Source of the DNA: Octopus sinensis
Lineage: Eukaryota
Length of the DNA: 64,000 bases
Assembly (NCBI RefSeq): GCF_006345805.1
Contig: NC_043004.1
Coordinates: forward strand, 94,116,001-94,180,000
Direction of reading: 5' to 3'
The translations under genes and the position numbers were made by a program. Shown here piece by piece: positions 9,667 to 61,527 of the stretch. Under the pieces are notes generated by a model. The model was given only the letters and a program-made list of their open reading frames with translations. It did not search any database and was not told where the DNA came from. Numbering within the stretch: position 1 is the first letter of the stretch; every line of letters starts with the position of its first letter.

Positions 9667-10412
9667 GACTCCGTCGGTTACGACGACGTGTGTTCCAGTT
9701 GATCCGATCAATGGAACAGCCTGCTCGTGAAATTAACGAGCAAGTAGTTGAGCACTCAAGGGGCACACGTAGTTCTCGGTGAGATTCAGCGTGAGACAAA
9801 ATGTGACAATGGATGGTGGCGAGCTGGCAGAAACGTTAGCACGCCGGACGAAATGCTTAGCGGTATTTCGTCTGCCGTTACGTTCTGAGTTCAAATTCCG
9901 CCGAGGTCCACTTTGCCTTTCATCCTTTCGGGGTCGGTTAAATAAGTACCAGTTACGCACTGGGATCGATATAATCGACTTGATCCCTTTGTCTGTCCTT
10001 GTTTGTCCTCTCTGTGTTTAGGCCCTTGTGAATAGTAAAGAAATAGGTATTTCGTCTGCCATTACGTTATGAGTTCAAATCCCGCCGAAGTCGACTTTGC
10101 CTTTCATCCTTCCGGGGTCGATAAATTAAGTACCAGTTACGCACTGGGGTTGATATAATCGACTTAATCCGTTTGTCTGTCCTTGTTTGTCCCCTCTATG
10201 TTTAGCCCCTTGTGGGCAATAAAAAAATAAGAATGTGGCAATGCTGTCCTTTTTAAATTACAGGTACAATTCATTTTTTTACCAGCTGAGTGGATTAGAG
10301 CAACGTGGAATAAAGTGTCTTGTTCAAGGACACAGCATCTCGCTGGGGATCGAACTCACGAACTGATGATCGTGAGCCGAATGCCACAAACCACTGAACC
10401 ACCCACCTTCAC
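9667..10412 (-). mobile_element. SINE family A-like copy interrupted by a family C dimer
   Basis: Tail 9667-9810 and head 10232-10412 join across the insertion; AATGTG(A/G)CAATG duplicated at both junctions. Confidence 0.75.
9814..10231 (+). mobile_element. SINE family C (Nin/Deu-domain-like), head plus two 184-bp bodies
   Basis: GGCGAGCTGGCAGAA head, B-box GAGTTCAAATTCC, GCCTTTCATCCTTTCGGGGTCGATAAA core; bodies start at 9862 and 10046. Confidence 0.9.
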
Positions 10413-32856: not shown

Positions 32857-33093
32857 TTTCTTATTTCTTTGTTGCCCACAAGGGGCTAAACATAGAGGGG
32901 ACAAACAAGGACAGACAAACGGATTAAGTCGATTAGATCGACCCCAGTGCGTAACTGGTACTTAATTTATCGACCCCGAAAGGATGAAAGGCAAAGTTGA
33001 CCTCGGCGGAATTTGAACTCACAACGTAAAGGCAGACGAAATACCGCCAAGCATATCGCCCGGTGTGCTAACGTTTCTGCCAACTCGCCGCCT
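32857..33093 (-). mobile_element. SINE family C
   Basis: Reverse complement of family C. Confidence 0.92.
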
Positions 33094-33499: not shown

Positions 33500-33663
33500 T
33501 TCTACCACTTCATCCACCTATCTCTGCCCACAATTCTGGGAGGTTCATGTGAACATCCGCCATAGGGTTCTATCAGATGTAGCCGTGATTAGACTTTCCG
33601 GTTGAATTCCCAAGCGTGATCAACTGAGATTATGGATATTATCCGACCATCTTATTCTTGGTC
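33500..33663 (-). mobile_element. RTE-clade LINE C-terminal remnant
   Basis: RPRIRWSDNI..LGIQPESL..SDRTLWR. Confidence 0.68.
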
Positions 33664-33668
33664 TACTT

Positions 33669-34210
33669 CTAGAAACTGCAGTCCGTGCGTATCACTTAGG
33701 TTGACGAGAGAAGGATGACCTCCCTTTGCAAATACTTTAGGGCACAGAAAGTGTGCCTAAAGCCAGCTGGAGGAGAGGTTCTCCTAGGGCTACAAGCTAC
33801 AGTAACACCCACCTTTATTGGTCAGCCATATTGAGATGGCAAATATACCTAACATTGTCGTGCAGTTACTGTTTATACCTCGTTCAGAGATTTATTATTG
33901 CTTGTATATAGTTTTTCGAGATCAGTGACGAAAAGTTACTGGAAAAATTATATAAGTATTTGCATTGGAACCCCTTTCATCGAAAACCAGTGATTGTCGT
34001 ACGCTGATGACAGGTCAATACCTAGAAACTGCAGTCCGTGCGTATCACTTAGGTTGACGAGGGAAGGATGACCTCCCTTTGCAAATACCTTAGAGCACAG
34101 AAAGTGTGCCTCAAGCCAGCTGGAGACGATGTTCTCCTGGGGCTACAAGCTACAGTGACACCCACCCTTAGTGGTTAGCCATATTGAATGGCAAATATAC
34201 CTCACATATT
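33669..34210 (+). mobile_element. Retrozyme-like tandem repeat, 353-bp unit, about 1.5 copies
   Basis: CTAGAAACTGCAGTCCGTGCGTATCACTTAGG at 33669 and 34022; a complete HHR spans the junction. Confidence 0.78.
33998..34042 (+). ncRNA. Minimal type-I hammerhead ribozyme, canonical CUGAUGA/GAAA core, GUC site at 34036
   Basis: CGTACG-CTGATGA-C-AGG[TCAATA]CCT-A-GAAA-CTGCAG-TC-CGTGCG; 6-bp helix I, palindromic helix III. Confidence 0.8.
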
Positions 34211-34565
34211 TGGTTATTATTCTACCATAAATGCCCAAGGACATTATTTGTTCATATGAGGCTTCTATTCATGTTTTCAACAGTTTAATTTTCAATATTT
34301 CCTAAAAGATCCATTAAGTTCAAAATATTTCAGTTTTTTTATGTCTATATATCTGATAACTGAAACGATAGAAATTCAATGGAATTGTATAAAATATATC
34401 TGGCTTTTCAGAATAACTTTATTTTTTCCTAGGTGAAATATTTTATTTCCATATTACCGCCCATAGTCCCTTATTACAGGCGGGCGGTTATTTAAGCCAA
34501 AAAAATAGTTTTTAAAATAGAATTTTCCGTTTAACAGTCCTGGGCGGATTTTCGGAAAACCCCGG

Positions 34566-34735
34566 TAAGTCGATTACATAGACCTCAGTGCTCAACAGGT
34601 AATAAATTTATCGACCGCGAAAGGATGAAAGGCAAAGTCGACCTCGACGGAATTTGAAATCAGAATGTAAAAGACGGACGAAATGCCGCAAAGCGTTTTG
34701 CCCGGCGCGGTAACGATTCTGCCAGCTCGCCGCCT
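34566..34735 (-). mobile_element. SINE family C fragment
   Basis: Family C core and head. Confidence 0.85.
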
Positions 34736-35146
34736 TACTTTATTTTCGAAATATGAATGAAATATTTTACACAGCAGCAGTTTTACCATCAGCCTATCCA
34801 CTGTGAGAAACCCTGCTCCATTTAGTCGCCATTCTCCATTTTAGTGCGAGTTTTAGTAAAAGAAGAAACCTCAACGCGGTTAAGCATAGCGCTAGCAATA
34901 AGCGATAAATCTCCCTCAACTAACGCATCTAGATTTCATAAAAAGGGATACGTTTACAATTTACTCTTAGATAAAGTATGCCAAAATAGAAAGTGTTGGC
35001 CATGACTAAAACACTTTGATCAAATTATGGGAAAGGTCTAACCGAAACATAAGCAAGTGTACTGTAATCAAGTTGTTTATAGTGACAAAATATTCATAGA
35101 TTCAACAGCTAGGTGGACATATTTTCCATGCTCACATTTATATACA

Positions 35147-36080: not shown

Positions 36081-36929
36081 AGGCGGCGAGCTGGCAGAAA
36101 CGTTAGCACGCCGGGCGAAATGCTTAGCGGTATTGCGTCTGTCGTTGCGTTCTGAGTTCAAATTCCGCCGAGGTCGACTTTGCCTTTCATCCTTTCGGGG
36201 TCGATAAATTAAGAACCAGTTACGCACTGTGGTTGATGTAATCGACTTAATACCTATGTCTGTCCTTGTTTGTCCCCTCTGTGTTTAGCCCCTTGTGGGT
36301 AATAAAGAAATAGGTATTTCGTCTGCCGCTACGTTCTGAGTTCAAATTCCGCCGAGGTCGACTTTGCCTTTCATCCTTTCGGGGTCGATAAATTAAGAAC
36401 CAGTTACGCACTGTGGTCGATGTAATCGACTTAATACCTATGTCTGTCCTTGTTTGTCCCCTCTGTGTTTAGCCCCTTGTGGGTAATAAAGAAATAGGTA
36501 TTGCGTCTGTCGTTGCGTTCTGAGTTCAAATTCCGCCGAGGTCGACTTTGCCTTTCATCCTTTCGGGGTCGATAAATTAAGTACCAGTTACGCAATGGGG
36601 TTGATGTAATCGACTTAATCCGTTTGTCTGTCCTTGTTTGTCCTCTCTATCTTTAGCCCCTTGTGGGCAATAAAGAAACGGGTATATGTATTTATCGAAG
36701 GCGGCGAGCTGGCAGAAACGTTAGCACGCCTGGCGAAATGCTTAGCGGTATTTCGTCTGTCGTTACGTTGTGAGTTCAAATTCCGCCGAGGTCGACTTTG
36801 CCTTTCATCCTTTCGGGGTCGATAAATTAAGAACCAGTTACGCACTGTGGTCGATGTAATCGACTTAATACCTATGTCTGTCCTTGTTTGTCCCCTCTGT
36901 GTTTAGCCCCTTGTGGGTAATAAAGAAAC
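36081..36929 (+). mobile_element. SINE family C array: head plus three 184-bp bodies, then a separate full copy
   Basis: Bodies begin at 36129, 36313 and 36497; the fourth copy from about 36698 is flanked by duplicated CGGGTATATGTATTTATCG. Confidence 0.93.
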
Positions 36930-37034
36930 GGGTATATGTATTTATCGTCCATTAAGTTATTTGTCTGTAGCTGAGCAATTGCGTTCACTCTCCATGCAGT
37001 ATCATTCAGGAAAATTTACCCTATATATATATAA

Positions 37035-38089: not shown

Positions 38090-38400
38090 AACAAAACTAC
38101 AGTAATCGATTTTTAGACCCATCCAGATGAACAAATACCCATTGGAGCCAAGCAAGCAGGAAAAACCAAAAGCAGTGAATTTGTCAAAGACGACAACAGC
38201 GATAAAACAAATCGACGTAATAGCAAACGAATTAAATTTAACTCCAACCGCCCGGAGATCTAGTTACAATGAGATTAAAGATGACATTTCGGTTTTCTGG
38301 AGAAAATTGCTGCTCACAGAAGAATCGTTCGAAAAGAATAATGATGAATCATTTGTTGGCAACAAAAGCAACTATTCTTCACCAAAAAGTAGGTATCAAG
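38090..38400 (+). mobile_element. Penelope-like ORF N-terminal (pre-RT) remnant
   Basis: AVNLSK...LNLTPT...EIKDDISVFWRKLLLTEE...DESFVGNKSN fits the Penelope pre-RT pattern. Confidence 0.6.
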
Positions 38401-39433
38401 CGATGTGTTTGTGGCTATATTTCTTATTTAATCCCTATTTTTGTAATGTTCTGAGTTCAAATTCTTCTGATGGCAATTTTTGCCATTCGGAGTGGAATAA
38501 AACAGATGTCGGTGATTGTTGTGTTATAAGGATGATGATGATGATGATGACGACGACGACGACGACAATGATGATGATGATAACGTAACATAAATGTTGG
38601 GCTGTAGTTTGAAGGAGATTCGACTGCTATTTCTTGTCCGCAGAAAAAACTTTGCAGATGTTTTCCTTGTTGGTAGCAGCCGCGTGTTTGTTTATCCCCA
38701 ACTCAGCTCTGACCCAGCAGAGCTATGAGGAAAAAATAACCAAACAATTTCATCTTTCATTAACCAGGCATAGAACTACATTATACACTGTTCTCTTGTT
38801 TTCTAAAACAGTAGACTGTAACTGTCATTTCTAGCATGTTGAGATACCACATAGAGATCCCTCCCACACCTTTCCAGTGAATTTGATTCAATCTACTGCG
38901 CTCCACCTTTACCGCTCCACTCCTTGCATACGAGTTCGTTAATATATTCACGTAACAAACGAAACGAACATTTGCAATACAAACAATAAAAATTTACATA
39001 TATAATAAGTTAATTAGAAAATAATTAAACGCCAGTTTGAGAAACATTTAAATGCTTCTCCCTACGCCCTTGCATAATGTGTTTTGAATGAACGTGACTG
39101 GCTGACAGTTTAACTAAGTGACTGATTAATTAACATCATTATAAAGATCGTAACCGGTGCGGCAGACGTTTATATCCACCCAACGTGGGTAAACTACAGG
39201 TGTGGCGAACAGCTAAAGTAAATAAAGAATAATTAATTTGTAATATTAATTTCTAAGGCAAGGACCAAGGACAAAAACATACGAAAATGCACAAAAATAG
39301 TTAACTTCATTTAAACATTTATTGTTTGGTGCCAAAATTTTCATCGCAGCAACCGGGACCCGGTTACAGATAGTGTTCCACTGCAACTGGTTTTGGGCGA
39401 AGCTGTTGGTTGACCCTGTCAGTGACCAGGTCG

Positions 39434-60332: not shown

Positions 60333-60336
<4 letters not shown>

Positions 60337-60460
60337 CACTGATAGGGCACAGAAAGTGTGTCTATAGCCAGCTGGCGAAGGTGTCCTCCTGGGGCTACAA
60401 ATACAGTAGCATCTACCCTTGGGGTTAGCCATATTCAAATGGCAATATACGTCACGATAT
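60333..60460 (+). mobile_element. Fragment of the 353-bp retrozyme-like family in (TA)n
   Basis: GGGCACAGAAAGTGTG...GCCAGCTGG...CTCCTGGGGCTACAA...GGTTAGCCATATT..ATGGCAA matches 34092-34200. Confidence 0.8.
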
Positions 60461-60502
60461 ATATAGATATATATATATTATATATCGTGACGTATATTTG
60501 CC

Positions 60503-60533
<31 letters not shown>

Positions 60534-61015: not shown

Positions 61016-61184
61016 ACCTATATTTATATTCTATTATTCCTTTATTTGTTTCAGTCATTTGACTGCCGCCACGCTGGAGCACTGCAAAATCGTTTGAGTA
61101 ATTCTCGAGTTTTAGTGATGCACACACACAGATAAACAGATAGACAGAGACACATTCTCAGTTTTATATATATAGATTACTATT

Positions 61185-61510
61185 CGGTACTGTTACTGTA
61201 TTTCTCTCGCTCAGAGATTTAAAACATGTTTTTCTTGATCCGAGTTCAGCGACTGTGTTGCTTAAAGAATGTATAGTATTTGCGAGTGGTGATAACTTTC
61301 GTGACTAGCTGGTAATTGTCCCACGCTGAGGACGGATAACAATCAGAAACCTAGGTCTATGAGTATCACATAAGGCAAGAGATAGGAACGATGACCTCAC
61401 TTGCAAATGATATATATGGATGCAGAATGTGTATCATTAGCCAGCTGGAAAAGATGTTTTCTTGGAGCTAAAGCAACAGTAACATCGTCCTTTACAGGAC
61501 TACCACATTA
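61185..61510 (+). mobile_element. Diverged retrozyme-like monomer with HHR at 61320-61363
   Basis: CTGAGGA-CGGAT[AACA]ATCA-GAAA-CCTAGG-TC followed by GTATCAC, GATGACCTC..TTGCAAAT and GCCAGCTGG, as in the 33.7-kb unit. Confidence 0.7.
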
Positions 61511-61527
61511 TAATTGCATATAAACAA

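Follow-up and report, generated by a model that had tools for sequence, protein, structure and literature searches.

The closest described relatives of the element reported here are the non-LTR retrozymes of metazoans, known from coral, mussel and axolotl (Cervera and de la Peña 2020, PMC7229834), which the main text of that paper presents as non-coding tandem units of 150-450 bp with a GC content below 50%, carrying a type I hammerhead ribozyme with a 6-bp stem I, a 4-bp helix II and a short palindromic helix III, co-occurring with coding Penelope elements and producing RNA circles. The retrozymes of vertebrates have been described as non-autonomous Penelope derivatives, i.e., dispersed monomers with rare, locally amplified multimers (Li, Clavereau and Pollet, bioRxiv 10.64898/2026.07.22.740005), and the sampling set out in the text of that preprint included no mollusc. 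Penelope elements themselves carry a tail on one end and an inverted 5′ copy (Craig et al., bioRxiv 10.1101/2021.04.23.441226), and two internal reverse-transcription starts delimit this tail (Frangieh et al. 2024, PMC11167929); the main texts of these two studies, together with that of Cervera and de la Peña (2014, PMC4209133), served as our reference for EN+ Penelope elements. Which enzyme mobilises the retrozymes of animals, and whether it does so from circles, is declared open in the texts of PMC7229834, PMC7761336 and the vertebrate preprint.

The window analysed here is a stretch of 64,000 nt from the genome of Octopus sinensis, corresponding to positions 94116001-94180000 of contig C8, and the repeat family represented in it is a new member of the metazoan non-LTR retrozymes. 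It resembles those of the main text of PMC7229834 in its non-coding tandem unit, in unit length and GC content, in the type and helix dimensions of its hammerhead, and in sharing a genome with coding Penelope elements. Two sister families, A and B, were distinguished, and E1 and E2 denote two recurrent 3′ ends of their copies. The relevant features of the window (all on the + strand) are as follows.

33553..33668 (+): unrelated host repeat, which breaks off at the insertion
33669..34207 (+): whole insertion (locus L345), a 5′-truncated family A copy of 1.53 units, ending at E1
33669..33689 (+): upstream half-site, read from the sequence (helix II end, GAAA, palindromic helix III, GUC, 3′ strand of stem I)
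33684..34036 (+): 353-nt unit bounded by two predicted cleavage sites, no ORF
33856..33903 (+): copy, internal to the insertion, of the 'tail' segment between E1 (unit 170-176) and E2 (unit 210-226)
33979..33992 (+): site of Tx1-like retrotransposons, empty in the window copy, occupied and duplicated in other copies
33998..34042 (+): type I hammerhead motif in full, with a predicted cut after 34036
60338..60512 (+): family B 3′ piece ending at E1 (60338-60458), TA spacer, 29-nt inverted end piece (60484-60512)
61170..61525 (+): decayed one-unit relative, ~72%
61320..61363 (+): hammerhead-like remnant with a different palindrome, CCTAGG

The initial annotation had read this repeat as 1.5 head-to-tail copies of a unit without an ORF, with a complete hammerhead at 33998-34042, a half-site upstream and related pieces at 60333 and 61185, and all of these observations hold. 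The repeat (539 nt) comprises 1.53 tandem units with a period of 353, GAAACTGCAGTCCGTGCG is present twice (33672 and 34025, 353 nt apart), the predicted cleavage points lie after 33683 and after 34036, and the overlapping halves are 92.5% identical across 187 nt. The longest stop-free stretch in a six-frame reading of the repeated unit is 56 codons, and its GC content is 41.6% (41.6-44% across the units measured). The related pieces correspond to 60338-60458, which is 89.5% identical to family B and 85% to family A, and to ~61170-61525. Tandem Repeats Finder did not report the 1.5-unit repeat, and, apart from the unit itself, no terminal repeats were seen. The window copy begins 15 nt ahead of the first cleavage site and ends at unit position 173; its 5′ junction has ~4-5 nt of microhomology with the host repeat, and comparison of the flanks revealed no target duplication. 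The continuation of the left-flank host repeat is absent from the right flank, the two flanks are unjoined in the 11 related loci compared, and none of the joints listed was an empty-site joint spanning 33669-34207; the unjoined flanks suggest either a target deletion or a later rearrangement. Both flanks (33553-33668 and 34213-34316) are parts of other repeats, and a very high-copy short repeat, which we take to be SINE-like, occurs in the window singly and in 184-nt tandem arrays (9862-10214, 36129-36947, ~32900-33090 and 34570-34740).

The hammerhead at 33998-34042 combines a stem I of CGUACG/CGUGCG with a core of CUGAUGA and GAAA, a helix II of AGGU/ACCU over a basal C.A mismatch, and a helix III formed by the palindrome ACUGCAGU, then C17. 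In the upstream half-site the CUGAUGA core is missing, as is most of helix II. The motif occurs beyond chance, with 209 exact matches of a 33-nt ribozyme pattern in the source genome versus none for the reversed control; an Rfam scan of the window returned nothing at the gathering score. Across 31 aligned copies of both families (19 distinct), 97% of cells are paired, with one two-sided (compensatory) change in each of the three helices across A and B. The copies were chosen by patterns in which helices II and III are partly fixed, which makes stem I the freer evidence. The palindrome of helix III differs as well, being CTGCAG in A, CTCGAG in B, CCTAGG in the remnant at 61326 and GTAC in the coding Penelope family P0001. 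One subfamily has U3/A8 in place of C3/G8 in the core plus a G-C pair at the base of helix II; this core variant is shared with Cercyon of Schistosoma, from which U3-A8 covariation is known (main text of PMC4209133). The subfamily was seen at L339, L341-L343, L354, L335/L355 and L356. The basal C.A mismatch, which recalls the U.U at the same place in axolotl HHR_Amex2 (main text of PMC7229834), characterises the family, being present in 68 of the 75 copies that could be parsed (from 93 arms), and 17 of the same 75 have C at core position 4; both may lower activity. Taken together, the compensatory changes across A and B and the U3/A8 subfamily argue that the ribozyme has probably been under selection.

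In a predicted dimer-type fold, joining the downstream core with the upstream half-site, the hammerhead is the minimum-energy structure (-18.7 kcal/mol), and the monomer hammerhead fold is weak (-4.7 vs -11.7 for a non-hammerhead alternative, both predicted). With the dimer fold favoured and the lone core lying downstream, a cut at 33683 is predicted to be possible at the window locus; since there is only one core, a monomer would be released only if that core made both cuts or if a partner RNA helped. Thus, of the 353-nt excision between two GUC sites that had been proposed, the spacing of the sites stands, and the excision itself is weakened by the single core, which must cut twice, and by the poor monomer fold. 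The circular fold of the window unit is predicted at -108.6 kcal/mol (z of -6.3 versus 60 shuffles), and the z values of the three natural units folded are -6.3, -2.0 and -3.4. At L022:2034-2633, a 50-nt piece of the unit (297-347), which covers the ribozyme and stops short of the cleavage site, is repeated ~12 times in tandem.

A retrozyme-type dispersed non-coding family, as the initial annotation had supposed, is supported by the genome-wide counts, since a second pattern at unit 4-25 matches at least 398 arms exactly in the source genome and, like the ribozyme pattern, has no match in its control. As 46 of 89 ribozyme-anchored arms match it exactly, we infer that roughly 800 arms reach this region. 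Family B, 75-80% identical to A, has the same 353-nt period and 63 matches. The copies are dispersed with unrelated flanks, their period is 352-353 nt, and the longest loci extend beyond five full units. Most copies, with a single site, fall short of 1.5 units, a difference from the retrozymes of the main text of PMC7229834, as is the putative status of the circles here. Two exact sites one unit apart gave 23 matches at 19 places only, and 14 of the 18 distinct two-site loci of the family have two whole ribozymes. The text of Li et al. (bioRxiv 10.64898/2026.07.22.740005) calls 'active' those copies that have two consecutive complete ribozymes; the window copy, with one whole motif and a half-site, falls outside this class, and it is among the longer products of the family and itself probably a poor source of circles. 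Some insertion pairs are near-identical (L051/L302 on C3, 48 kb apart; L095/L096 on C6; L335/L355) and represent segmental or assembly duplicates. Assembled contigs from four presumed-RNA runs and four unlabelled runs cover the unit unevenly; level, strand and circularity are not readable from contigs, and as the junction sequence of a circle equals the genomic tandem junction, contigs cannot separate the two.

What the earlier reading overlooked is the main evidence, namely two fixed 3′ ends and head-to-head arms of the kind typical of Penelope integration. We inspected 141 arms (one or two possibly counted twice) at 88 loci anchored on the ribozyme only, these being 30 returned loci less 2 duplicates plus the next 60 listed places, out of the 209 matches. 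Their 3′ ends fall at unit 170-176 (E1) in 54 cases and at unit 210-226 (E2) in 63, 117 together, i.e., at two positions ~45 nt apart that mostly run into AT-rich or microsatellite DNA, and their 5′ ends are scattered. In a second, partly overlapping sample, anchored at unit 4-25 and drawn from the first 97 of 398 matches, 51 and 29 of 95 arms end at E1 and E2, respectively. Head-to-head arm pairs are present in 41 of the 88 loci, and the 43 pairs comprise 26 E1+E2, one E2+E2, no E1+E1 and 16 with an off-class end. Hence 26 of the 27 classifiable pairs have one end of each kind (one-sided binomial ~2e-7 versus an even split, computed by hand).

These ends and arms match the published Penelope pattern, and we therefore read them as Penelope-type integration. 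Shared with EN+ Penelope-like elements, as their texts describe them, are two internal starts downstream of a hammerhead, an optional tail on one end, 5′ truncation, an inverted 5′ arm and AT-rich or microsatellite targets; unlike them, the unit has no ORF, its tail is ~45 nt rather than 30-40 bp, and its hammerhead is canonical rather than minimal. Two fixed 3′ ends with head-to-head arms are undescribed in the main text of PMC7229834. The family shares with the vertebrate retrozymes, as the text of bioRxiv 10.64898/2026.07.22.740005 presents them, dispersed monomers, rare locally amplified multimers and, on our reading, dependence on Penelope, but the argument there is built on co-occurrence and pLTR homology and here on an insertion footprint, no homologous pLTR having been found. 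Our literature search, with most subscription papers and the supplement of PMC7229834 outside it, found no report of a Penelope footprint on a retrozyme. Whatever the template, we consider that mobilisation of this family by a Penelope-type machinery is well supported and highly probable.

Our favoured account goes further and is, in our judgement, somewhat better than an even bet: RNA of the dispersed non-coding tandem repeat, of which the window element is a 5′-truncated copy, would be cut and closed to a 353-nt circle, and a borrowed Penelope-type reverse transcriptase-endonuclease would write it into AT-rich DNA. Transcripts of loci with two whole ribozymes would be cut via the dimer fold of the palindromic helix III, and the monomer would be ligated to a circle, by analogy with the retrozymes of coral, mussel and axolotl. 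The Penelope protein would then begin reverse transcription within this RNA, either at E1, 172 nt beyond the cleavage site, or at E2, ~220 nt beyond it; often both starts would be used, each on its own DNA strand, thereby giving rise to head-to-head arms. Synthesis would pass back across the ribozyme junction and stop at random, at ~0.6% per nt, so that most copies would have one site and few more than one unit.

A rather unlikely alternative, yet the strongest of those considered, keeps the same family and the same Penelope enzyme and replaces the template by an uncut linear multimer (or by monomers joined through template jumps) from tandem source loci, with circles as a by-product or absent. 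Of the 95 arms whose anchor lies immediately 3′ of the cleavage site, only three end there, two of these being a single insertion in duplicate, and the rate of 0.0045 per nt lies inside the 0.002-0.011 range of other bins. This argues against cleaved linear monomers as the main template, and the read-through fits a circle and an uncut multimer equally. A first ranked search had suggested that 5′ ends accumulate at the cleavage site, an accumulation no longer seen in the anchored sample. When repeated segments of the same locus are compared, 831 of 902 subfamily-diagnostic states agree, versus 56 ± 3% in 200 random pairings with segments of other loci (97 pairs of segments, which are not independent; C30 left out), a concordance that fits either one RNA read repeatedly or one subfamily active at a time. 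Two of the 14 loci with two whole ribozymes (L347 and L348) pair different subfamily cores in tandem, which speaks for the multimer, and L026 has discordant arms; neither combination is obtainable from one monomeric circle. The units of the longest array, C30, are ~99% alike and share changes absent from its inverted arm (other within-locus pairs average 94-95%), so this array has probably grown at the DNA level after insertion, homogenisation or an assembly effect being the other explanations; long arrays that appear to grow in this way could act as sources of multimers. In published work, unprocessed RNA was the main substrate in the one Penelope system tested in vitro, in which ribozyme mutants inserted normally (main text of PMC11167929), and 8 of 9 Xenopus retrozyme dimers remained uncleaved in vitro (text of bioRxiv 10.64898/2026.07.22.740005). 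Against the multimer stand the rarity of two-site loci relative to the abundance of arms, the maintenance of compensatory changes in the ribozyme and the failure to find an invariant 5′ end upstream, as expected of a transcript start, much of a cluster at -52 to -57 being Tx1 junctions. Scarce source arrays, no fixed transcript start, ribozyme covariation and the circles made by related retrozymes together favour the circle as template. The rolling-circle reverse transcription proposed initially thus survives in part: a circle fits the data, but so does an uncut linear multimer, C30 was probably amplified as DNA after insertion, and the two mixed loci speak against a single circle.

We consider it quite improbable, and largely refuted, that the copies are merely solo pLTR remnants of coding Penelope elements, truncated at the 5′ side before the ORF, with no independent retrozyme. 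Every end feature does match coding Penelope elements, and the ~60 GIY-YIG loci examined, out of 5029 candidates, are mostly of two families (the GIY-YIG search gave 147 matches, examined as 30 loci and 30 longer regions). In the coding family P0001 (RT + GIY-YIG), a hammerhead-like motif precedes the first end by 141 nt, and 17 of 30 copies have a tail; the family is young, with 3′ regions 99-100% identical among the 40 best matches. However, the retrozyme unit closes on itself every 352-353 nt, in the longest cases for five full units and more; what lies upstream of the ribozyme is the same unit or Tx1-like inserts, not a Penelope ORF; and fragments of Penelope-type ORFs occur in only 4 of 182 family loci (472 kb), none with an ORF followed by a same-sense unit (flanks of 0.7-1.5 kb). 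Matches to additional protein queries taken from L175 and L181 were disregarded, as these queries proved repeat-derived. That copies might always be attached to a coding Penelope as its pLTRs had been named at the outset as grounds for abandoning the retrozyme reading, and such an arrangement was seen in 0 of 182 loci. Nor was homology to the unit found in the sampled Penelope flanks (GIY-YIG loci and 30 P0001 3′ ends) beyond neighbouring independent insertions, which are present at L087, L098, L112 and L146, with TA spacers at L098 and L146. From these comparisons, the unit appears not to be the pLTR of a coding element. L098 had been entertained as an inverted pLTR and was rejected, as the 3′ end of that family carries a different ribozyme. 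Candidates for the partner enzyme are P0001, P0002 and others, none of them linked to the unit by sequence. The very young P0001-type family (L098:2530-6320 (-), L102-L131) has a 775-aa RT + GIY-YIG frame, an upstream frame and a CxxxxC linker, with a hammerhead-like C[CU]GAAGA, a U.U under helix II and the palindrome AGUACU. P0002, a second young family (L093:642-5480, L094-L097), has frames of 781 aa and, upstream, 479 aa, and copies 97-99% identical; no hammerhead-like motif was found in it with the patterns used. A decayed N-terminal fragment of a Penelope-type ORF, 37-44% identical to P0001/P0002, lies in the window at 38112-38498 (+), 4 kb from the window copy.

It is very improbable that the family is instead SINE-like, mobilised by the machinery of L1/Tx1 or another LINE, its inversions arising through twin priming. 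Fixed 3′ ends, 5′ truncation and inversions are LINE features too and thus compatible with this origin, and the unit sequence is recognised as DNA by Tx1-like elements. Yet the unit itself carries neither a poly(A) tail nor one of simple repeats, the window copy lacks a target duplication, and two internal ends paired one per arm, with arms overlapping in sequence, form a Penelope pattern.

The Tx1-like elements, presumptively so labelled from domain order, are 5.3-5.7 kb long, comprise an ORF1 and an endonuclease/RT ORF (PF03372, PF00078), and split several copies just 5′ of the ribozyme, where a duplication of ~14 nt of unit sequence flanks the insert in all six loci with both junctions seen (L326, L328-L331, L334); their junction was met in 6 of 95 arms of the unit 4-25 sample. 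Three upstream sequences shared between copies (X, Y and Z) at first resembled a partner's 3′ UTR; two of them, X and Y, proved to be such APE-RT retrotransposons inserted with target duplication. Two APE-RT families, ~81% identical, share this fixed site (L326:2875-8296, L328-L331, L334, L324 and L325; contigs C1, C2, C4, C9 and C12), and L324 and L325 each contain two inserts in tandem. Insert Z (L332:6847-8495, L333:3268-8410) sits ~10 nt nearer the ribozyme and has zinc-knuckle ORF1-like frames; no RT frame was seen in it at L332 or L333, and it is possibly a non-autonomous relative of the APE-RT inserts. A search of the literature, with Repbase and Dfam outside it, found no report of a Tx1 element targeting a hammerhead repeat.

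That the family is satellite DNA amplified by recombination, its hammerhead a chance look-alike, is hardly credible: the empty Rfam scan and the local amplification of some arrays would agree with it, but the copies are dispersed among unrelated flanks with retroposition-type ends, and there are four helix III palindromes (A, B, the 61326 remnant and the P0001 motif) as well as core covariation.

Returning to the circle as the favoured template, we tentatively postulate, as a conjecture that could well prove wrong, a three-tier system, in which a Penelope protein without sequence kinship to the unit would recognise the 353-nt ribozyme circle by its structure, prime it at two internal sites, each on a different strand of the target, and write head-to-head arms from one circle, and in which Tx1-like elements would in turn have specialised on a 14-nt landing site 5′ of the ribozyme. 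For the mobilisation of animal retrozymes in general, the end pattern of this family indicates Penelope machinery and allows the start sites to be predicted exactly, at unit 172 and ~220. A short natural RNA copied from internal starts would, moreover, represent a minimal substrate for Penelope integration.
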